This document shows, piece after piece, positions 2,500 to 30,881 of a stretch of 35,932 bases of DNA. The stretch comes from a virus. A program made the translations under genes and the position numbers. Each line of letters begins with the position of its first letter. Positions within the stretch are counted from its first letter, which is position 1. A model generated the notes under the pieces. The model was not told the origin of the DNA. It was given only the letters and a program-made list of their open reading frames with translations, and ran no database searches. Where the stretch lies: the UHGV virus genome UHGV-1541349. One strand, given 5' to 3'.

Positions 2500-4989
2500 T
2501 TAATGTTCAATATCTATTTGATTATCAATTTGAATAATGTTTTGAATCTCACTGTAAATATCAATGTTCTCATCTGGTACATCTATGCTAACCAATAAAC
2601 TATATTTAACATTGTTAATATAGCGATCCTGCGCAGTACGATATTTCCACCATCCACCAACAGGATAGACAGCGATAGTATTCATCTCTGTTAAATCTGC
2701 AGCACTGCCTTTCCAAGCATCTGAGTGTAATGAACCTCTAACTCTGAGTTGAGGCCCCAGAAACCATCCTGACGCATCTCCTTCAGGTCCATTGTATTCT
2801 TCATTATTCGCATTACGGTTTATCGAAGCACGGAAATTTTCAAGGGTCTGATTAGGTCTAATAACTGCAAATCTCAATCCATGAGATTGATACGAATATT
2901 GTCGTCTGAATCCTTTTTGACTTGGATTAGGTTCAATAAAATACGACAATGTGATTCTTAAAATAACATTTGTTTCTGGTGGTAGTAAGCGAAGAGCTTC
3001 TACGGGCCAAGGGAGTGAAAACAGATGCATTTCATTCAATGTAGGATCAGTAGAACCATCTCTTTTAAATGGGGTGATTTCCGACTGAGATATTAATGTA
3101 AGTGCATTTTCCGCACTATGCATTGCTCGATTTAAATTAGGTACTCCATAACCAACCATCCTTAATAAGCTTTCTTTAGCCGATTTTGGTGTCCCCTGTG
3201 CACGTTCTGTTCTATATCGTTCGTGCATACGACTAGTCCATCTTGCTGTATGAACAAGTAATCCCCTAATAGTTTCAGGCCAATATTCTGGGTACTGAGC
3301 CATTAGCATAGCAGCATGTTTTGATACTAGAGCACAGGCTGCGCTAGTATCTGAATTAACTTCAAACAATTGATTTGTTGCCCTGCCAGAGGTTGTGAGC
3401 AAAGATAATTCAATTGTATTTGTGATTTCATCACGGCTAGGTGATATAAGTTTGTTTCCGCCTTCCTCTACTAAATCTGGCTTATATGGGGCATGCTTTT
3501 TCCATCCCCAGGATACCGATGACCGAGATGACGGTGCAATATCTTCTGACATAGCGAAAGGAGACCAACCATCATATTCGCGGTCTGTATGGGTTGTTTT
3601 ATCAGTATACGCCCCTACAGTTAATGCATTCCAAGATTGAGCAGGATCTTCAATTTCAGCAAGAGTCACTGAATCCCAATAATCTAATTCTAAATTTGTA
3701 GGTTGAGAGTTACCCGCAGAAATTATAAATAATCTGCGGATATCATCCTCTAAACCAAAACTAAACTTGTCAATCTCTGCAGACCATGAGGACGGTTGGC
3801 CTCCAAGAGTATTAGGCTCTGCTGTCACAGCAAGCGAATAAACTCTGCGCCAGTTCGGGTTTTCCAGCTCCAGACGACTTGACGTTCCTGTAGTAATAGC
3901 TCCATAAAGATTAGGATCATTAGTAGCTCTTGGAGGTAGTATCCTTCCTGATTCGATATTGTACGGAATCGAAATGTCCTGATCGTTCAATAAAACAGAC
4001 AGGAAATCTCCATAAACACATAGTCCTGCTTGTCTGGAACCGTGGTCATTATAAGGCCTTTGATTATAATCATCGAAAAGTGGCCAAGATATGTCCCAAG
4101 CAGCTGCCAGTGATGAGTTAGTAAATCTAGATAATAGTGGATTATTGTAGTTAACACCTGTATCTAATATACAAACAGAAACATCAGCTTCATTGTTACG
4201 CGTAATTCTTGCAGCAACATTTTCTGCCCACTGATGCTGTTCTGTAGGTAAGGAATTAACTATAACTGATATATCATCCCTCGCTGATCTTATCTCTTTT
4301 AAATTAGATATTAATTCAGGACAAACTTTTAATCTCGATAGACTCGTACGGATAAGAACAACAGTAGTATCGAAAAAATTAATAGAAGTATTCCCGAGCC
4401 TTCCATTAATTCTTTCGCATAAACGCCGAGCAATATTTAGCACATCCTCCTTATTACCCTTAAGCCAAAGCTCAAACCACTTTTCAACACCGTGATCATC
4501 CGGAATAAGATCTTTTTTATCTGTCCAGAAAGAAGTTATATCTGCTAACTCGATATTTTGTATGCTATCAATTAACAAATGATTTCTAGGGAACTCGATA
4601 CCATCCTTCGATGGATTCAAATAGTCATTTATTTTTTTAGTGAATTTAGTTCTGTCATTTTCATTAATGTATATAATCGCAGTTTCACGATTATTTGATT
4701 TAACTAAAGAACAAAGCTTGAAATAAGTATTATCGATTTTATCTATAGGAAGATCGCATTGTTCAAAACTGATTAGCCTAACATAAATCCCTTTTTCATC
4801 AGTAACAGGGGGAAGCCTCGGTCTTTCATCATAATGATTCAATATACGGCTATACTGATTTAGTAATGATATACCATGTACCGCTCGATCACGAGCTGGG
4901 ACTTGGGGACTACGACCATTGCTCCTAGAGCGATAGTTTTCGGGGGAAACATAGCCGTTTAATAAAATATGCCTCTTGTTGGTAGTCAT
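2500..4989 (-). CDS. ietS: Subtilisin-like S8 serine peptidase with N- and C-terminal extensions (IetS-like)
   Basis: S8 catalytic motifs in the correct order: D (VCILDTGVN), H (NDHGSRQAG), S (DTSAACALVSKHAAM). Lies 9 bp downstream of an AAA ATPase on the same strand, the architecture of the IetAS defense pair. Symbol is by architecture only. Confidence 0.7.
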   Translation of the reverse strand: MTTNKRHILLNGYVSPENYRSRSNGRSPQVPARDRAVHGISLLNQYSRILNHYDERPRLPPVTDEKGIYVRLISFEQCDLPIDKIDNTYFKLCSLVKSNNRETAIIYINENDRTKFTKKINDYLNPSKDGIEFPRNHLLIDSIQNIELADITSFWTDKKDLIPDDHGVEKWFELWLKGNKEDVLNIARRLCERINGRLGNTSINFFDTTVVLIRTSLSRLKVCPELISNLKEIRSARDDISVIVNSLPTEQHQWAENVAARITRNNEADVSVCILDTGVNYNNPLLSRFTNSSLAAAWDISWPLFDDYNQRPYNDHGSRQAGLCVYGDFLSVLLNDQDISIPYNIESGRILPPRATNDPNLYGAITTGTSSRLELENPNWRRVYSLAVTAEPNTLGGQPSSWSAEIDKFSFGLEDDIRRLFIISAGNSQPTNLELDYWDSVTLAEIEDPAQSWNALTVGAYTDKTTHTDREYDGWSPFAMSEDIAPSSRSSVSWGWKKHAPYKPDLVEEGGNKLISPSRDEITNTIELSLLTTSGRATNQLFEVNSDTSAACALVSKHAAMLMAQYPEYWPETIRGLLVHTARWTSRMHERYRTERAQGTPKSAKESLLRMVGYGVPNLNRAMHSAENALTLISQSEITPFKRDGSTDPTLNEMHLFSLPWPVEALRLLPPETNVILRITLSYFIEPNPSQKGFRRQYSYQSHGLRFAVIRPNQTLENFRASINRNANNEEYNGPEGDASGWFLGPQLRVRGSLHSDAWKGSAADLTEMNTIAVYPVGGWWKYRTAQDRYINNVKYSLLVSIDVPDENIDIYSEIQNIIQIDNQIDIEH

Positions 4990-20634: not shown

Positions 20635-20890
20635 TCAACTGATCTTTATCGATAATCTGCTTATCTTTGTCGGCAATCTGAGCTTGCAGGCTGTCGATAA
20701 TGGGTTGCAGATCATCGGTGTCGCTAATCACGCTTTCGGAAAGCTCGGAGTGCGCCTGGGTGAACCAGTGCGACGCGACCTCTTCCGGTACGTTATGCCG
20801 TCCCCGGCCAAACTCCCTTTTTGACTGATCGCCGAGCGTCAGCGTAAACGGGGTGTGAACATGGATGGTAACCAGCTTTTCTTTCGCCAT
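20501..20890 (-). CDS. Coiled-coil head-associated protein
   Basis: Sits directly after the major capsid gene. Heptad-rich segment [43 protein letters not shown]. Confidence 0.35.
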
Positions 20891-20931
20891 TTTCAGTTCC
20901 CTTCTGGCCCCTTTCGGGGCCGTTCTGGTTA

Positions 20932-21873
20932 TCAGATACCGTCCACGTAGGACAGGGTTTCTTTGTACACTGGCTCAACCGCACCGAGCTTGCCGTAGTA
21001 GGTCGCAATCTGATACAGACCGCGATACTGGACAGGAACGCTCTGCAACGGCACCAGCGGATAGCGCACGTATTTCTTGTCGTTGGTGTAGGCGATCATA
21101 CGGTCTTTACCGCCAACCCCACGCCCTTTCAGCCATTTGACCGCTTTGATTTCAAGCGGAACGCCGTTCTGGTGGAAAGCGATAGTGTTCACAGCCAGAT
21201 AGGTCAGCAGTGACTGGTTACCCGCTTCGGAAACCTTACGGCTCGCCAGCAGTGAATACTGCTCTGGCGGAATGCGCAGATCAGAAGGCACGATGGAATA
21301 ACCGGATGCTGCCCAGGCATTAGACAGAATGCTGTTCACGCTATCGAGGATCTCGTCGTTGGTTGAGTTCGCCCAGGTCTTCGGCGCGTTGTTCAGCGTC
21401 ACACCGACGAGGTTTGCCAGACCTTTCAGGCCGAGTGCGTCATCACCGATGTAAACCTGCTCGTCGTTGTCCATCTGCCATTTGAGCTGCATCCCGTCGT
21501 ACTTCTGGGTATCAATCGGGCGGCCTACCTGCTGAGCAGCTGCCAGCTCTACAACGGTCCAGCCCAGTTCCATACCCCAGAGGTTCAGTGGATTGCCGTC
21601 TTTGCTGATATCCACGTTCACGCCAGCAATAGCGGTGGAGTCTTTGCCTACCCAGTTTTTACCATTCGGATTTGCACCAGTACCCGCAGCGGCGAAGCTG
21701 GTATTCGTCCAGCTGGAAATGTCATCTGCGATAGACACGTCTTCACGCAGTTGAATATCTCGGGTCCAGGTGTACCCCACCAGAGGCAGGTTCAGCGTCT
21801 GGTCGAGTCGCTCCAGCTCCCCGATGAGAAAGGCACCGGAGCTATCTACGGTTGCCTGATCAAAAGTAATCAT
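20932..21873 (-). CDS. Major capsid protein (Mu gpT-like)
   Basis: 313 aa, located after the protease/scaffold and a small head protein. Confidence 0.6.
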   Translation of the reverse strand: MITFDQATVDSSGAFLIGELERLDQTLNLPLVGYTWTRDIQLREDVSIADDISSWTNTSFAAAGTGANPNGKNWVGKDSTAIAGVNVDISKDGNPLNLWGMELGWTVVELAAAQQVGRPIDTQKYDGMQLKWQMDNDEQVYIGDDALGLKGLANLVGVTLNNAPKTWANSTNDEILDSVNSILSNAWAASGYSIVPSDLRIPPEQYSLLASRKVSEAGNQSLLTYLAVNTIAFHQNGVPLEIKAVKWLKGRGVGGKDRMIAYTNDKKYVRYPLVPLQSVPVQYRGLYQIATYYGKLGAVEPVYKETLSYVDGI

Positions 21874-21884
21874 TTGTCTGTTCC

Positions 21885-22388
21885 TTAAATCTTCCAGGAG
21901 ATTTCTACATTGCCGTTAGCGTCACCGGCCCCTGTGAATTCGGCGTTGGTCAGCGCCACGTTTTTGCCACTGACGGACGTGGACATGAAGCCGCCCAGCG
22001 GCACTTTTATGGATTCATCAGTGGAGACGACAACGTATACCGGGTCGCCTTTTTTGATGGTGCTGGCATCAAAATCAGAACCGAGATTAACGGTCATGTA
22101 GCCACGCTTCATGGCGTCACCCGGGAAGTTCTTATCCGTCCCCACCTGGCGAACCATGTCTGGCTGCGATGTGGTCGGATACGGACGAACGTAGATCCCC
22201 TTCACCTTGTCGGCGGTGTCACCGTCCGCCAGCGGCACGAAAAAGCCGTCAGCGTCATATTTGCCAGCCAGACCATAGGCAGCGAAGGCGTTAGCGGATT
22301 TAAGGATCACCGGTTCGACGGTTAAGTCCTGCGGGCGAGAGATAGCCCCGGCAATGCCAACAGGCATCCGGTACAGATATGCAGTCAT
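21885..22388 (-). CDS. Head structural/decoration-type protein
   Basis: 167 aa directly upstream of the major capsid gene. Called by position. Confidence 0.4.
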   Translation of the reverse strand: MTAYLYRMPVGIAGAISRPQDLTVEPVILKSANAFAAYGLAGKYDADGFFVPLADGDTADKVKGIYVRPYPTTSQPDMVRQVGTDKNFPGDAMKRGYMTVNLGSDFDASTIKKGDPVYVVVSTDESIKVPLGGFMSTSVSGKNVALTNAEFTGAGDANGNVEISWKI

Positions 22389-22392
22389 TGGA

Positions 22393-23625
22393 TTATCCTT
22401 TGCGGTTAGACCAGAAGTCGGCGTTTTGTTTGTTCAGGGAAGCGATGCTTGTCATGCCCATATTTGGACGTTGTGCATCGCCCGTGGTGCTGCGGGTGTT
22501 TCGCCCTTTGGCAATCTCTGACACGGCGTTAAACGCCATATCTACCGATTGCTTGGGCAATTTGCGGATATCCGCATCACCGACAACCTGGCGAACCAGT
22601 GTTTTGTCAGCGGCGGACAGCACATCACGTTTGAACGCGGTCGGTTTCACCTTACGGCTCAGATCGATACCCGGAACGATAACTTCGGCACGATAAGCAG
22701 CGTCACCGGTAATCGTGGTTTCCTCTTCGTCGTCCTCACCGTCGCCGGTAGGGTCTTTGTTATCTTTGCCGTCAGGCTTATCGTCGTTATCGCCCGTTGC
22801 AGTACCTTCCAGCTTAGCCAGCAGGGCTTTGAGCAAGGTTTTGATATCGTCCTCGCCGTCGCCGGTTGGCTCTCCGCCCATTTCCGGCTTTTTGTCCGGC
22901 AATGGTTGTTGCGGTGAAAGATTAATGTTGAGGTTAACGCCGCTCGGCAGATCCCCTTCATCGCCCGTTACCGCCGCTGGCGCAGAGTCCAGCAGTTCGT
23001 TCATGGTGTCAGCATCACCCGTTTTGATGGCCGTGCGCATGCGGGTCCACCAGCTTTTCTTTTGATTTGCCATTGTGTCTCTGTCTCCAATTGCACAACG
23101 ATTTCCGGCTCTGCCTTTAGGGACAAGAGCCACATGGTTTCCGGTAATATCGACCTGCTCGGCTTTTCCGGGTTCGGTCTGCTCGTACTCAGCGTCATAG
23201 CCGCACGACACTTCGCGCAGACCATCTTCGATCAGCTGAATGGCGCTTTCGTCTTTGACGATAAGGTCAGCCAGCATCAAATCAGACTGATCACCAGTCC
23301 CGCGCCGAACGTTCTGAAGATGCCCGACCGCAAGCTCTTTCCAGTTCTCGGGGTTGACCAGCCGCACATTCCCGTTTTCATCTTCAGGATGCAGGATCGT
23401 GATGCTCATCCCTTCGAATGAGGCGAGCGTGGCCGGATGGAATACCTGATCAGGAGAGCGCGTTACGACTATCTCGCCGAGCTTGTCGGGTTTGAGGTTT
23501 GGCAGATCGGCAGCGCCGTAAAGCTGCTTACCCGTTCGACCTATCGGCACGTCTTTGCACAGCAGCGAGCCGTCAGCCAGCTGATAACGGGTTTCCCCCA
23601 GCCGGGTATTGAAAAAATATTTCAT
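22393..23625 (-). CDS. Head maturation protease/scaffold-like protein
   Basis: 410 aa with an acidic, Gly/Asp-rich low-complexity middle region typical of scaffolds. Follows the Mu F-like gene. Confidence 0.45.
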   Translation of the reverse strand: MKYFFNTRLGETRYQLADGSLLCKDVPIGRTGKQLYGAADLPNLKPDKLGEIVVTRSPDQVFHPATLASFEGMSITILHPEDENGNVRLVNPENWKELAVGHLQNVRRGTGDQSDLMLADLIVKDESAIQLIEDGLREVSCGYDAEYEQTEPGKAEQVDITGNHVALVPKGRAGNRCAIGDRDTMANQKKSWWTRMRTAIKTGDADTMNELLDSAPAAVTGDEGDLPSGVNLNINLSPQQPLPDKKPEMGGEPTGDGEDDIKTLLKALLAKLEGTATGDNDDKPDGKDNKDPTGDGEDDEEETTITGDAAYRAEVIVPGIDLSRKVKPTAFKRDVLSAADKTLVRQVVGDADIRKLPKQSVDMAFNAVSEIAKGRNTRSTTGDAQRPNMGMTSIASLNKQNADFWSNRKG

Positions 23626-23639
23626 GGTTTACCTGCGAT

Positions 23640-24413
23640 TCAGGCGAGATAAGAATGAGGGTTGGGGAAGACGATTTCTTTGTAACAGCGGCAGTTCGGG
23701 AGCTCGCCAGCGTGACCGGTCATGCCGTCAAGCGTTGGAGGTCGGCCCCATTCGACAAACTTCCCTTCCATCTCCCGATGAGAATGCCGGACGTCGCCAT
23801 CTTCGGCTGTACGCCAGATATAACCATTCGAGCCGATTGACAGCGCACGCGCCTGATCCAGTGCACCGGTTGCGCGCCCAAGCTCAGTCCGGGCGATAAG
23901 GTTCGCTCGTGAGCGTGACACGTCACCGGAAGCAGCTATCTCTTTCGCGAATGGCTCAGCGCGGCCACCAGTTACTACAGCCTCGATGGCCTTGTTCTGA
24001 ATGTCATACACCCGATCGGCGGCCTCAAGAGGCAGAGATTTGATGTACTTAATTTGCTCGGCGACGATGGATTTCATCACCTGGCCTACCGGGGCGCGGT
24101 CGACCATGTTGCGTAGTTCTGCGCTGATGTTCCGGCTGTGCTGACGCCACTGCTTTTCATTCTGGCGCGCAATGTCGGCGGTGAAGCTCTCAGCAACCTT
24201 AGTCGCCCAGGGGGTGATGATTTCGCTGTAGCGCTCCAGCGCATCCATTATTTCGGTGACGCTATCGTTTGAACCATCGTAGCGACCATTTACGATATCC
24301 CCGACCGCCCGCGCTATCTGCCGTAGGCTCGTTCGATATCGGATCTCCGCCTGGCGGCTCTGGCGGTTTGTCGCCAAGTTCGCCGATGCCTGGCGGCGCT
24401 TCGTCTTCGGCAT
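23640..24413 (-). CDS. Head morphogenesis protein (Mu gpF / SPP1 gp7 family)
   Basis: C-terminal hallmark IWRTAEDGDVRHSHREMEGKF...GELPNCRCY. The ORF overlaps the portal 3' end by about 150 nt, so the start may be internal (Met near 24248). Confidence 0.6.
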   Translation of the reverse strand: MPKTKRRQASANLATNRQSRQAEIRYRTSLRQIARAVGDIVNGRYDGSNDSVTEIMDALERYSEIITPWATKVAESFTADIARQNEKQWRQHSRNISAELRNMVDRAPVGQVMKSIVAEQIKYIKSLPLEAADRVYDIQNKAIEAVVTGGRAEPFAKEIAASGDVSRSRANLIARTELGRATGALDQARALSIGSNGYIWRTAEDGDVRHSHREMEGKFVEWGRPPTLDGMTGHAGELPNCRCYKEIVFPNPHSYLA

Positions 24414-25731
24414 TCTCGATATCCTCGTCGGTAATGGATGCCCCGATGCCGGTGACGTCAGAGTTTTCGCGCAGGTCGGTCATCGCCGCCTTACGCGTCA
24501 TCAATCCGTCGCCCAGCGCGGTACTGATCGCGTTGGTGGTGTTTACGGCCACCGTTGATCGGTCAACGTCTGACATTTGCCATAGCGGGTTAAACTCAAA
24601 CGTGAAATCGTCCGGCAGCGGCTTTCCGAGTTCCGAGCGGTGCATAATGTCCAGTATCCGGCGCATCGGCAACCGTAAGCGGCGCTCCTGCAATGAGCTC
24701 ACCCGGTCGTAATAGTTGGCGAGGTCTGCATCACCAGTAGAGAAGCCTTTCGGGGATTGACCGAACAGGCGGACCAGCGGGATACCAACGGCACCGCTGA
24801 TCTGCTCAGCAAACTGCGAAAGAATGTCATCCAGACCACTAAAGCTGTACTGGTGGGTTTCGAACTTATCCCGCGAGTCCATGAGCGTCATACCTTCATT
24901 GCTCTGGAACTGGCGGATCAGGTCGATGTTCTTCAGCAACGCTTCGAACGCCGGGCCTCCAAGCGCGATAAGCTCGCGCAACTTCTCCACGCTATAGGTA
25001 CGCAGATGCGCTTTATAGACCAGCTGCGCCGCGCCGACAGTAGCGCTATCGAACGCAGTAAGCCGATCCCAGATACGCTCTACAACCGACATTCCCCATT
25101 CGTTTTCGGTCATCTTCTGCTGGAATGGCAGCGTGACGCCATCAAAGCGGATCAGGCGGCTGTGATGGATGCGCCAGGCCGGAATGCCCGTTGCGGTGGT
25201 CACCACGTCGTAAAACTCAGGCTTGCCGAGGTCCGGCCCCATCTCTTTAATGCGGCGTGTCAGCACCGGGTTAATCATCCAGCGGTCGAGCGGGAGAATG
25301 CCCTTAAACTTGCCCTCGCCAATGGTTTCGAGTCGCAGCGGGGTCATTGGTGCCTGCCCCTCGATCATGATGAAGCCGACCGCGCCGCCGTAGAGGCGCG
25401 ACCATTTCAGCACGTCGTTCAGCGCATCCCAGATCTGCAACTCATCCAGTTGCGCTTCGAGGGTGCCACGGTCTTTGGCGTCAATCTCCGAAGTGATGCG
25501 AATGCCCTTTCGGGTCATATCGTCCGGGATAGCGTCGACCGCTTCACCGATAACCCACGAACCGCGATATGACCATTCCACCAGCATGCGGTTGCGGCTG
25601 GTGAAGTTCGCCCGGTAGGTCGATGCTGAATGCTGGTTAGGCGTCTGCATCCCAACGCGGGCGACTAAGTTCTCGTAGCCGTCAGCGGTGGCCTGTGCCG
25701 TTCGCTGAGAGGATTGCTTGTTTCGTGCCAT
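24262..25731 (-). CDS. Portal protein
   Basis: 489 aa immediately downstream of the large terminase gene. Confidence 0.55.
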   Translation of the reverse strand: MARNKQSSQRTAQATADGYENLVARVGMQTPNQHSASTYRANFTSRNRMLVEWSYRGSWVIGEAVDAIPDDMTRKGIRITSEIDAKDRGTLEAQLDELQIWDALNDVLKWSRLYGGAVGFIMIEGQAPMTPLRLETIGEGKFKGILPLDRWMINPVLTRRIKEMGPDLGKPEFYDVVTTATGIPAWRIHHSRLIRFDGVTLPFQQKMTENEWGMSVVERIWDRLTAFDSATVGAAQLVYKAHLRTYSVEKLRELIALGGPAFEALLKNIDLIRQFQSNEGMTLMDSRDKFETHQYSFSGLDDILSQFAEQISGAVGIPLVRLFGQSPKGFSTGDADLANYYDRVSSLQERRLRLPMRRILDIMHRSELGKPLPDDFTFEFNPLWQMSDVDRSTVAVNTTNAISTALGDGLMTRKAAMTDLRENSDVTGIGASITDEDIENAEDEAPPGIGELGDKPPEPPGGDPISNEPTADSAGGRGYRKWSLRWFKR

Positions 25732-27359
25732 CAGGCCTGTCTCCCTAGCAGCTCCCAGATGTTCAGGGCTGAATTCATTGGCGCGTAGCTGATCATCACC
25801 GAGTCGGCGAGGTTCGGCGACTTGGTGCCATCAGGCTGTTTATCAACAACGATTTTCCCCACGCCGTTAATGGAGTAGGTCGGCTGCGACAGCTCGATGA
25901 TGAGTTTGTCTTTGCTCGCCATGGCGCTGCTGATTGAGATGATTTCGTCCGGGTTGTAGGCCATGCCCTCAACCACGGCGCGATAGGTGTTCTGGAAAAG
26001 CTTGCGTAGCCACCACCAGCTCTGGGCCTTGGCGTTGGCGAAGAAGTCCTTGTTCAGGCGTGCGGCCTGTCCGTTGTCCCCGCGCACCGCTTCATCGTCC
26101 GGATCAAATACCGCGCCGCTACCACGAAACGGTGTGGCGAGTATTGACGGTCGGCGCGCAGCGTTACGCAGTTCGTTGATGGCGCGTGCATCGCCGCGAA
26201 CGCCAGCGCCCAGGCCGTCCTCGTCGAAGCGAAATTCTTCGAGGTTGTCCTGTTCGCAAAAGCCGAAGACCTTCTCAACGGACTGGTAAATGTCGCTGCC
26301 CACGCCGGACCATTCACGCACGTTCTCCAGAAGGAAGCCGTGACGGGTCGAAAAGGCATTTTTGTCCCGGCCTTCGTCGGCGACGTCCATCGCGCCCAGT
26401 CGCTTGCCCGTTGGCTGAATACCAAGTTTGATATGCGCGTCGACGGCAGCCTGTACCCAGTCGGACGGGATCAGGACGCCTTCCGCAGATGCGCTGTAGT
26501 TCAGGTCAAGTTCCTGCGCCACCACCACCGGATTGTCGATTTTCTCGCACTCCCTGCGATACCACTCTTCATCCTTGCGAGGATCATCCCGCCAGTGGAA
26601 TGTGAATACCGGTATCTTCCCGCCGTGACGCTTCTGCGCGAACGGGTTCGCCATGCCATTAACCGAGCTCAGGTCAATACGGCAACGGGTGGTTTGCGAC
26701 AGCGCCGCATCAATCAACAGAGGACGCTGGAGGAATGCAGCTTCATCCACCAGGTAGAGCGTGGTACGGTCACCACGACCGATATTGTCGCCAGCCTCGC
26801 CTTTGATGACCGCGCCAGTATCGGGAAACTCAACGCGCATATACGGCGCATGCTTCTTCTCGTCCCACGAACCACGAAACTCGATGGGCAGTGTTTCCAC
26901 GAACTTTCGCGCCTTCCAGAACAGCGCCTTCGGGTCACCGGTGCTGTCGACGTATTCCTCTTTACGGGAGCCGAAACCGATAACCATTTCTTTGTTGAAG
27001 AGACAAAGCGAGCAGGCCAGCCCGATCGCGGTCCAACTGAGCCCCATTTCGCGGCTCTTTTCGGTGATGCCGTTCTCCAGTCGTTCGCGCCGCTCCATGA
27101 TCCAGTGAATCCACTCTTCCTGTTTCGGGAACAGCAGAAAAGGGATGGTGACCGGCAGGCCATAATCGATGTTACGCGGGTCAGTAGTCATACCCCAGTC
27201 GATGATGAACTGTGCCGGGTTGGTGCGATAAAACTGCTTTAGCGCTGGCAGCATTTCAGGGTTCTGGCGAATGCGCTGTAAGCGCTCCATCCGCCATTCA
27301 AAAACCATCTGGTAATCAGGGTTTCTGAAATCGAATTCAAACGGGAGAGGCATGATCAC
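25731..27359 (-). CDS. Terminase large subunit
   Basis: 542 aa with an N-terminal ATPase-like region and a C-terminal nuclease-like region (LYLVDEAAF). Position is upstream of the portal. Confidence 0.65.
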
Positions 27360-27829
27360 CCCATCATCTTGCGGTAAATCTCTGCGGCCTGATCTGCAGT
27401 GAGATTGGTCGTCTCGGTCTTGATCGGGCCGCCATCCTTGCCGGTGCTCTCAACCTTCAGCTTATTGGTGTAAGCGTCGCCAACCTCTTTCGCGGCCTGT
27501 TCAATCAGCTGCGCCGTCAGGGAGAAGTTTTTCATCCCCTCGGTTTTGGTTGCCATGCGGTCAAGCACGCGGAGGCGATAGGATTTGTTCGCTATCGGAA
27601 TGTCGCTGGTTTCGGTCAGGAACCGTTCGCGCGTCGCGTGGAACATCTCGATCCACTTTTTGGCGAGCGTCTTACCGCTGGCCTTCGTGGGGTCGTGAGA
27701 TTCAGCCTGCTGGCGGGTGATCTTGATCCCAAATTCTTTTTGGACAGCCTCGACCACCTGCGATGGCGTGTCATAGCACGCAAGCGACTGAATGATGAAG
27801 GCTTTCACATCAGGTTTTAATGCAGCCAT
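27356..27829 (-). CDS. Terminase small subunit (putative)
   Basis: 157 aa, stop overlaps the large terminase start. Confidence 0.45.
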
Positions 27830-27860
27830 AAATCACCATTCGTCTTATACAGTCCAGTAT

Positions 27861-28517
27861 TTAAGCCAGTCGCAGCATGCACGTCCCGCACGCTCTGGCA
27901 ATATCGAGATGAGCAACCTCCGCTGGCTGATTCGCCGCATCAATCATTTCCTGCACGTCCCGGCTTGCACCGTAACGGCGAACCACGCCCACAAACTCTT
28001 CCACGTCATGACCGCGCAGCTTCAGCTTTGGCTGCCCTTCCTGCGTGAACTTCGGCGCACCAAATTCATCTGTCGCTTGGCAGATGTGATAAAGCTCGTG
28101 CTCTATCAGCGCGCAGAATTCCAGATCGGAACATTGCGAGCAGTAATCGGCGGCCAGCGTGATGATGAACTGCGGCACCCTGCCGAACCATTCATACATC
28201 TGCTGCTCCATCCGCGCTTTCTGCCAGCCTCCGGCCCGCATTGCCACTTCTTCCGCCTGCCCCAGCACGGAACGCCCTTTCTTCTCGAAAGCGTTCGATG
28301 CCCAGAGAAAGCACAGATCCGCTTCAAGCAAATGCTGGTGGTCATGGTTGTAGAGGTCACCCTCATCGCTCAGGATGTGCTGATTCAGCCACTCGCCAAC
28401 GTCATTAGCGGGCATAATGCTGATGTACGGCTTCGGGTCAGGTGGCATCGTAAAATGCGCTGGTGGGTGTGGTCTGTTCATGAATAATTCCAGTGCTCCA
28501 TTATCGAAGCCCCTCAA
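27861..28517 (-). CDS. HExxH-motif protein, putative zinc metallopeptidase
   Basis: Contains IEHELYHI (an HExxH zinc-binding motif). Lies between the Rha gene and the terminase genes. Confidence 0.45.
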   Translation of the reverse strand: MRGFDNGALELFMNRPHPPAHFTMPPDPKPYISIMPANDVGEWLNQHILSDEGDLYNHDHQHLLEADLCFLWASNAFEKKGRSVLGQAEEVAMRAGGWQKARMEQQMYEWFGRVPQFIITLAADYCSQCSDLEFCALIEHELYHICQATDEFGAPKFTQEGQPKLKLRGHDVEEFVGVVRRYGASRDVQEMIDAANQPAEVAHLDIARACGTCMLRLA

Positions 28518-28541
28518 TGAAGGGCTTCTGTAATGCCGCGA

Positions 28542-29096
28542 TCAGCCAATAAGTAATTCCGGCTGCGTTACCTGCATGATGTGCTCATGTTCGAGCTCCA
28601 GGACGCGCTTCTCTTTCTTCCGCTCGTTCATCAAACGGCTTCCGATCGTGCCTTTCAGCTTTGAGCGCGTTTCTTTGATGGCGTAGCGATGCTGCAATTC
28701 TTCACCCATCGCCATGCGCCGGTTTAGCTGCTCGGCCATCCAGTTGAAGGCATTGATGTAACACTCCTTCACTGCGGCAGCTGTTTTGCCAGTGAATCCC
28801 ATCACTAGCATCATGCATCCGTCGCGGGTGATGTTATACATAGGCTGAACATCGCCATTTTTATCAATGAAATCAATGGGCGCAAAATTGCGCTGGGTGA
28901 AGTCATCGGAGCATTTCAGGTTACGTATGGCACGCAAAACGTCTTTGTGTCGCTTGCCAAAGTAATCCGCCACCTTGAGTGATGTGGTGATTATCTTGTT
29001 GTCGAGGGTCGTGACCATTTCGCGGAAGTCGAAGGCCGGAATAACTGACGGATTATTCATAGCGTCTTTACCTTTTAGAAAGTGAGCCTGTCTCAC
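28542..29096 (-). CDS. Phage regulatory protein, Rha family
   Basis: N-terminal TTSLKVADYFGKRHKDVLRAIRNL signature of the Rha family. Probable start at the internal Met (MNNPSV) near 29060. Confidence 0.6.
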   Translation of the reverse strand: MRQAHFLKGKDAMNNPSVIPAFDFREMVTTLDNKIITTSLKVADYFGKRHKDVLRAIRNLKCSDDFTQRNFAPIDFIDKNGDVQPMYNITRDGCMMLVMGFTGKTAAAVKECYINAFNWMAEQLNRRMAMGEELQHRYAIKETRSKLKGTIGSRLMNERKKEKRVLELEHEHIMQVTQPELLIG

Positions 29097-29207
29097 AGAA
29101 AAGCCGCCCCGAGATGGTCGCCACCATATACGGCAGTTCTCAGGCTCAACTTTCTGAAAGGCTCGGGTGATGTAATATGCGCGTGAGATGCGCTGTGAAA
29201 TTCAGAT

Positions 29208-29236
29208 GTAAAAAAAGCCCCGCATCGCGAGGCTCA
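29208..29236 (-). terminator. Rho-independent terminator after the lysis cassette
   Basis: Minus-strand hairpin gcctcgc-gat-gcggggc (one G.U pair) followed by a T7-8 run, about 30 nt downstream of the Rz stop. Confidence 0.5.
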
Positions 29237-30725: not shown

Positions 30726-30801
30726 TGGTGCTGGTTAACGGACTTGAACCGCTACCCATTCGCTTACAAGGCGACTGCTCTACCATTGGAGCTAAACCAG
30801 C
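30726..30801 (-). tRNA. Phage-encoded tRNA, anticodon UGU (Thr-like)
   Basis: 76 nt ending in CCA. Manual fold gives 7-bp acceptor, D and T arms, and anticodon loop CTTGTAA. Anticodon assignment is manual and unverified. Confidence 0.55.
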
Positions 30802-30806
30802 ATGTT

Positions 30807-30881
30807 TGGCGGGACAGCGTGGACTCGAACCACGATAAGAAGGTTAACAGCCTTCCGTAATGACCTTTATACGACTGACCC
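30807..30881 (-). tRNA. Phage-encoded tRNA, anticodon GUU (Asn-like), one acceptor-stem mismatch
   Basis: 75 nt ending in CCA. Perfect anticodon stem GAAGG/CCTTC with loop CTGTTAA, T-stem CGTGG/CCACG, and a T.T mismatch at acceptor pair 4-69. Confidence 0.5.

Follow-up and report, generated by a model that had tools for sequence, protein, structure and literature searches.

A predicted zinc metallopeptidase of the phage family PF18894 is the regular upstream partner of DUF2280 small terminase genes

In the virus genome UHGV-1541349 (35,932 nucleotides; this whole stretch of DNA was analysed and is called the window below), a gene on the (-) strand lies between a Rha-family gene and the terminase genes, and the locus raises the question of what this gene encodes and why it stands directly ahead of the genes for DNA packaging. 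A first-pass annotation, made from the sequence by itself, had described a metallopeptidase-like protein of 218 amino acids with an HELYH motif and several cysteines, had assigned it to an accessory slot, and had proposed that it could cleave a repressor or a host factor. The placement between Rha and the terminase genes is confirmed by matches to PF09669 on one side and to PF10045 (DUF2280) and PHROG 2 on the other. We find that the gene encodes a member of PF18894 ('putative phage metallopeptidase') and that it is a fixed upstream partner of the DUF2280 gene, in an association that is very strong but not absolute. The family itself is already known and catalogued, and as a gene call the locus is ordinary, given that the family is named and widespread in phages; what appears to be new to the literature that we searched is that it is paired with the small terminase, independently of the large terminase (TerL). 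The value of the locus lies in a large family under strong selection, whose near-obligate pairing gives a testable handle on both PF18894 and DUF2280. Residue numbers throughout are those of the 206-amino-acid protein that starts at the ATG at position 28481, and the coordinates of all features are collected in Table 1.

The protein matches PF18894 (PhageMetallopep) over profile positions 2-134 of 134, with 147.1 bits against a gathering cut-off of 23.7, and it matches PHROG 513 with E = 9e-97. PF18894 is the sole Pfam family reported for it at E ≤ 10; NCBIfam yielded no match, and sequence and profile searches of the PDB found no relative. Proteins of the PF18894 type form 3468-4182 clusters at 90% identity and 903 clusters at 50% identity, and prophages that carry the family occur in Enterobacterales, Pseudomonas, Acinetobacter, Vibrio, Burkholderia and Rhizobia. 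A protein 100% identical to that of the window occurs in Citrobacter phage Omnitron and in a prophage of Apirhabdus apintestini, and proteins that are 98-99% identical are already public, several sources naming them 'putative metallopeptidase'.

We assessed residue conservation in 131 representatives of the 50%-identity clusters, which are 33-77% identical to the query. H128 and E129 of the HELYH motif are kept in all 131 and H132 in 130 of them, and HExxH is likewise invariant in a separate alignment of 150 sequences; judged from these sequences, the HExxH of the protein, which had been read correctly in the first-pass annotation, is no chance motif. Further along the chain, H158 is conserved in 130 of 131 representatives (99%), D159 in 93%, E161 in 96% and G171 in 100%. 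The protein does contain several cysteines, seven in all, of which only C198 (98%), C201 (88%) and C123 (76%) are features of the family, C114 and C117 being retained in about 20% of relatives. The second cysteine of the C-terminal pair is followed by at most 8 residues (0-8) in 114 of 115 representatives.

A first structure prediction from 23 close homologues (71-99% identity) reached a predicted local distance difference test score (pLDDT) of 48 and was discarded, whereas the AlphaFold2 (AF2) model from 150 sequences (down to 41% identity) has a pLDDT of 87.8 and a predicted template-modelling score (pTM) of 0.79. The model comprises a beta-sheet (residues 56-78 and 105-110), a backing helix (85-99) and an active-site helix that carries HExxH (119-131), followed by a 25-residue beta-hairpin and a helix at residues 160-170, which is preceded by H158-D-V-E-E; the C-terminal 20 residues, including CGTC, are modelled with low confidence. 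As modelled, the protein adopts a zincin-type (clan MA-like) fold with its sheet, backing helix and HExxH helix. The structural match figures obtained with the model were 8.1 for projannalysin, 7.2 for selecase, 6.9 for the SprT domain of Spartan, 6.6 for proabylysin, 6.3 for BepA, 6.0 for both YbeY and BlaR1, and 5.0-5.5 for Wss1, and the top matches are peptidases. Foldseek returned nothing significant from the PDB and a single match from viral models, which is another PF18894 protein.

In minigluzincins, zinc is held by HExxH and a third histidine (PMC6925264). By analogy, zinc would be bound in the phage protein by H128 and H132, with E129 acting as the general base, and the third metal ligand is likely to be H158 or else E161 on the next helix. 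Wss1 and Spartan are similar to minigluzincins, and a cysteine switch controls Wss1 (PMC4559962); C198, in the flexible tail, could be a comparable latency (cysteine) switch, or could alternatively join H48 and H50 in binding a second metal. The best-supported reading of the model and the conserved residues is that the gene encodes a zincin-type zinc hydrolase whose predicted active site is intact, and this predicted hydrolase is most likely a peptidase. It would be a soluble, acidic enzyme of roughly 23 kDa: the calculated isoelectric point (pI) is 5.2 (the median of the PF18894 family is 5.5), and no membrane segment is predicted. The description as metallopeptidase-like therefore stands, on the full-length PF18894 match, the invariant HExxH, the conserved candidates for the third ligand and the zincin fold of a confident model; the motif is conserved, and none of the matches was to a non-catalytic structural family.

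Comparison of the protein with known zincins shows clear differences from each group. With the minigluzincins projannalysin (4jix), selecase (4qhf) and proabylysin (4jiu) it has no detectable sequence similarity, and whereas the minigluzincin scaffold has about 100 residues, the phage protein is twice that length, with about 90 residues aligning. Beyond the minigluzincins it has a 55-residue N-terminal part, a 25-residue hairpin insert between HExxH and the following helix, and a cysteine-bearing C-terminal tail. The minigluzincins named are archaeal, whereas PF18894 is a phage family. No SprT-like or WLM Pfam match relates the protein to SprT/Spartan or Wss1 (WLM), even at E ≤ 10; it is acidic and has, in the short form found here, no evident DNA-binding sub-domain, although about a quarter of its relatives carry an N-terminal helix-turn-helix, and no link of the gene to the repair of DNA-protein crosslinks was seen. 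The M48/M56 gluzincins (BepA, HtpX, Ste24, BlaR1/MecR1) are mostly membrane-embedded or periplasmic, in contrast to a protein that lacks a predicted membrane segment; no hidden Markov model (HMM) of these families matched, and no repressor gene lies near the metallopeptidase gene.

Comparison of the gene with 71 non-redundant relatives gave identities of 0.85, 0.91 and 0.57 at codon positions 1, 2 and 3, respectively; the corresponding values for the DUF2280 gene are 0.74, 0.80 and 0.48, and purifying selection on it is weaker than on the metallopeptidase gene. The metallopeptidase gene is thus under purifying selection, and its (-) frame is coding. Since the codon-position pattern fits the (-) frame, the (+) open reading frame (ORF) opposite the gene is a shadow ORF and not a gene. 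In the list of ORFs the metallopeptidase gene extends over 27861..28517 (-), with a TTG start at 28517 that gives the 218 amino acids of the first-pass annotation. The ORF is real, but the ATG at 28481 is more likely to be the true start, because the Pfam and PHROG alignments both begin downstream of it, because the database proteins P0001 and P0002 (98-99% identical) have 206 amino acids, and because the TTG falls within the strong hairpin upstream of the gene (Table 1).

What stands next to the gene is conserved on one side only. A DUF2280 gene lies directly downstream in 84 of 86 close viral loci, in 159 of 166 when more distant loci are added, and in all 77 bacterial-genome loci. Among GenBank phages, the numbers of metallopeptidase and DUF2280 genes are 62/62 in Acinetobacter, 44/44 in Pseudomonas, 8/8 in Vibrio and 7/7 in Burkholderia phages, and the order metallopeptidase-DUF2280-TerL-portal is found in the annotated phages Pectobacterium ZF40, Pseudomonas JBD44, Acinetobacter AM106, Vibrio PP270 and Rhizobium TM3_3_3. 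The genes upstream, on the other hand, are diverse, with about 100 unrelated clusters in 142 loci; Rha is next to the metallopeptidase gene in just 2 of 86 related loci. The gene does not, therefore, occupy an accessory slot as had been supposed; Rha is the variable element of the locus.

The pairing is independent of the large terminase and of the head genes. Pairwise identities of the two partners co-vary, at 38-71% for the metallopeptidase and 43-72% for DUF2280, whereas most TerLs of these phages cannot be aligned with one another. The TerLs behind the pair belong to at least three unlinked clusters, and the modules that follow it include Terminase_6N with an HK97-like portal and an S78 protease, Terminase_6N/6C with a DUF4055 portal, and Terminase_3-type proteins with a T4-like portal or an S49 protease. 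Thirty-five genomic loci lacked a TerL match and were sought out as possible satellites; the one that was spot-checked (L219) has a TerL of another lineage (Terminase_6N/6C). The two genes are separated by 400-700 nt in three loci and in the Rhizobium phage.

A natural swap in Escherichia phage vB_EcoM-606R2 narrows down the part of the packaging module with which the metallopeptidase gene is associated. The TerL of 606R2 is 96% identical to that of the window, and its head region aligns with window positions 20737-27436 at 86% nucleotide identity; this homology ends inside the small terminase gene (terS), at about window position 27436. The small terminase of 606R2 belongs to Terminase_2 and has only its last 39 residues in common with the DUF2280 protein of the window (64% identity). 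In 606R2, Rz is followed directly by terS, and no metallopeptidase homologue was found in the whole genome (best tblastn E-value, 0.19). The small terminase of the window phage is thus a mosaic, with a shared tail encoded at 27356-27436, and it is the N-terminal part of DUF2280, for DNA recognition and oligomerisation, that the metallopeptidase accompanies. Because the tail also occurs in the Terminase_2 protein of 606R2, which works with the same TerL, the DUF2280 protein is the small terminase here, and DUF2280 can be labelled accordingly in annotations; its exchangeable C-terminal tail presumably contacts TerL. PDB searches with the DUF2280 protein found nothing.

Since the metallopeptidase travels with neither TerL, portal nor head, it is not a head-maturation enzyme. 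A role as prohead protease is likewise rejected: the window has a separate protease/scaffold gene, and 606R2 has the same head genes without the metallopeptidase gene.

As to function, the gene is co-oriented with the late genes and is the first of a pair, with the DUF2280 small terminase gene second. The predicted protease would act late in infection, and its substrate would be a protein tied to the small terminase or to the initiation of packaging: it might mature, activate or turn over the small terminase, or remove a protein from the site at which packaging begins. We infer catalysis, metal ligands, late timing and the packaging link, and we draw the function from gene order only. The reading that we favour, tentatively and at somewhat less than an even chance, is a protease that acts late and has a substrate linked to the small terminase or to packaging initiation; if it is true, the protease would be a new component of terminase biology, and it could be of use in engineering temperate Acinetobacter, Pseudomonas and Klebsiella phages.

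Several observations weigh against this reading. DUF2280 occurs without the metallopeptidase in 181 Salinibacter phages, and DUF2280 terminases are therefore not strictly dependent on it. Conversely, a few metallopeptidase genes lack DUF2280: at locus L115 the next genes encode another type of small-terminase-like protein and a Terminase_3 TerL, and in Bordetella phage PHB04 a distant copy lies some 3 kb away from TerL. Tight linkage might also result from a cis-acting site or from inheritance of the block as a whole, with no partnership between the proteins. The acidic pI argues against a Spartan-like mode of DNA binding for the short forms. Finally, in the literature searched PF18894 and DUF2280 (COG4900) are mentioned only in genome annotations, and studies of their biochemistry or genetics were not found.

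A more specific proposal is that PF18894 proteins are dedicated protease partners of DUF2280 small terminases, some of them fused to a helix-turn-helix (HTH) domain and possibly kept latent by a cysteine, which process the terminase or clear the packaging-initiation site. We regard this as unlikely in so specific a form. Were it true, it would place a proteolytic packaging step, which is not known for any terminase system, in a large group of temperate phages of proteobacteria.

Alternatively, the protein may be a late protease directed at a host protein or a defence system, standing next to the terminase only because the late structural operon starts there. The predicted active site, intact and highly conserved, would serve such a function equally, the gene is conserved more than its neighbours across phages of alpha-, beta- and gamma-proteobacteria, as would fit a conserved host target, and the Salinibacter phages use DUF2280 without it. 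However, anti-defence genes usually vary in presence and position, whereas the metallopeptidase gene is fixed beside DUF2280 in 159/166 and 77/77 loci and disappears along with DUF2280 in the 606R2 swap; a typical arms-race gene would not be so fixed in place and so strongly conserved. Among defence-system models (PADLOC) there was no significant match, only one at chance level, and neither an M78/ImmA signature nor that of any other regulator protease was found. ImmA/IrrE (M78) proteins do resemble the phage protein in having an HExxH zinc site and in occurring in temperate phages, but PF06114 gave no match, no Xre-type repressor gene is adjacent, and the gene lies between Rha and DUF2280/TerL, a late/packaging setting and not a lysogeny-control region; an ImmA/IrrE identity was therefore rejected. 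The suggestion of repressor cleavage or anti-defence made in the first-pass annotation thus finds no support, and we consider a host or defence target doubtful.

A further possibility is that the linkage is cis-acting or historical: a packaging or late regulatory site recognised by DUF2280 would lie in or beside the gene, or the block would simply be inherited together, and the role of the protein would be unrelated to packaging. A small terminase and its recognition site are necessarily co-inherited, the metallopeptidase gene and the N-terminal part of DUF2280 are missing together beyond the swap junction in 606R2, and the tolerated insertions of 400-700 nt indicate that translational coupling is not required. 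Yet a scan of third codon positions gave no clear embedded element, only modest peaks of 0.72-0.74 where codons for Trp, Met, Gln, Glu and Lys are abundant, and the region has no notable repeats, the repeat search having returned short matches that are likely due to chance, apart from the hairpin upstream of the start. Moreover, a cis element would leave the strong selection on catalytic residues unexplained, so that a function of the protein would still be needed. We judge this explanation to be distinctly unlikely.

In HK97-like phages, genes for terminase-associated HNH endonucleases lie just before the small terminase gene. The metallopeptidase gene has the same position and some family members carry a DNA-binding HTH domain, so that the zincin fold might instead belong to a YbeY-like metal-dependent nuclease or to a non-catalytic subunit of packaging initiation, but this is very unlikely, given that the glutamate of HExxH is invariant (131/131), as in peptidases, whereas the YbeY motif (HxxxHxxxxxH) has no such glutamate, that the top structural matches are peptidases, that no nuclease family was matched and that the protein is acidic. 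A terminase-associated HNH endonuclease was itself rejected, as no HNH family matched and the fold is that of a zincin.

Among the 150 best representatives, about a quarter are longer, at 250-330 amino acids, and many of these long forms have an N-terminal helix-turn-helix and a linker ahead of the conserved core. The best match of the N-terminal domain is HTH_Tnp_1 (E = 3e-5), with weaker matches to HTH_8, HTH_28 and HTH_23, which suggests that some family members bind DNA; the short form found here, with its pI of 5.2, is not obviously DNA-binding. The HTH_Tnp_1-like domain probably explains why PHROG 513 and many GenBank records are labelled 'transposase', a label also carried by ZF40 gp39 and JBD44 gp16 (L001 and L002). 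In the short and the long forms alike, PF18894 was the only family found, and no transposase catalytic domain was seen; a transposase identity was rejected, and the label looks like a propagated mis-annotation that should be dropped for PHROG 513 and for the GenBank records of the family. The long forms still precede DUF2280 and TerL, which excludes that they replace the small terminase. One further candidate long form, L161, proved to be an over-extended ORF of high GC content. The start of the core is marked, even in the long HTH-bearing forms, by an RPxPP motif, which corresponds to residues 3-7 of the window protein (about 28461-28475, (-) strand), is placed with high confidence in the model, and has an invariant R3, with P4, P6 and P7 each conserved in at least 85%.

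Table 1. Features of the metallopeptidase locus and its surroundings in the window
Feature	Coordinates	Strand	Description
PF18894 'putative phage metallopeptidase' gene	27861..28481	(-)	206 aa from ATG; stop codon included
HELYH (H128 E129 L Y H132)	28086-28100	(-)	Predicted zinc-binding and general-base motif; model helix 119-131
H158-D-V-E-E162	27996-28010	(-)	Candidates for third metal ligand; start of helix after 25-residue beta-hairpin insertion
H48-x-H50	28332-28340	(-)	Conserved His pair in N-terminal part; H48 97%, H50 95%
C198-G-T-C201	27879-27890	(-)	Near C-terminus; tail pLDDT about 51-54
Antisense ORF	27792-28487	(+)	231 aa; opposite metallopeptidase gene
DUF2280 small-terminase gene	27356-27829	(-)	PF10045, E=5e-50
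Large terminase (TerL)	25731-27359	(-)	PHROG 2, E=1e-31; 96% identical to annotated vB_EcoM-606R2 TerL
Protease/scaffold gene	22393-23625	(-)	PHROG 1961, 12864, 530
Rha-family gene	28542-29096	(-)	PF09669, E=8e-31; upstream neighbour of metallopeptidase gene
Stable hairpin (inverted repeat)	28499-28535	(-)	Rha-metallopeptidase gap; RNA fold -29.8 kcal/mol, z=-4.4; no T-run

In the window, the stop codon of Rha is separated from the ATG of the metallopeptidase gene by 60 nt and the stop codon of the latter from the DUF2280 start by 31 nt, and the end of DUF2280 overlaps the start of TerL by 4 nt. Beyond TerL follow, in order, the genes for the portal, a head-morphogenesis protein, the protease/scaffold protein and the major capsid protein, all on the (-) strand. 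TerL itself has no Pfam-A match at E ≤ 0.01; with its PHROG 2 match and its 96% identity to an annotated TerL, this lineage seems to be poorly covered by Pfam. The Rha gene looks like an inserted self-contained unit, or moron (28499-29235, (-) strand), because it is flanked by a terminator and the hairpin and because it so rarely adjoins the metallopeptidase gene in related loci.

Some minor observations concern the surroundings of these genes. In the Salinibacter phages, as in phage 4_20 (L087, 3432-6099), DUF2280 is followed by an ORF of 540 amino acids in the position of TerL, and the gene upstream of DUF2280 encodes a hydrophobic, membrane-like protein of 172 amino acids that has no Pfam match. 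In the window, a canonical intrinsic terminator (stem and T-run) is located at 29215-29235, between Rz and Rha, and genes for tRNA-Thr(TGT) and tRNA-Asn(GTT) lie at 30726-30881 on the (-) strand, just upstream of the holin-lysozyme-Rz lysis genes.
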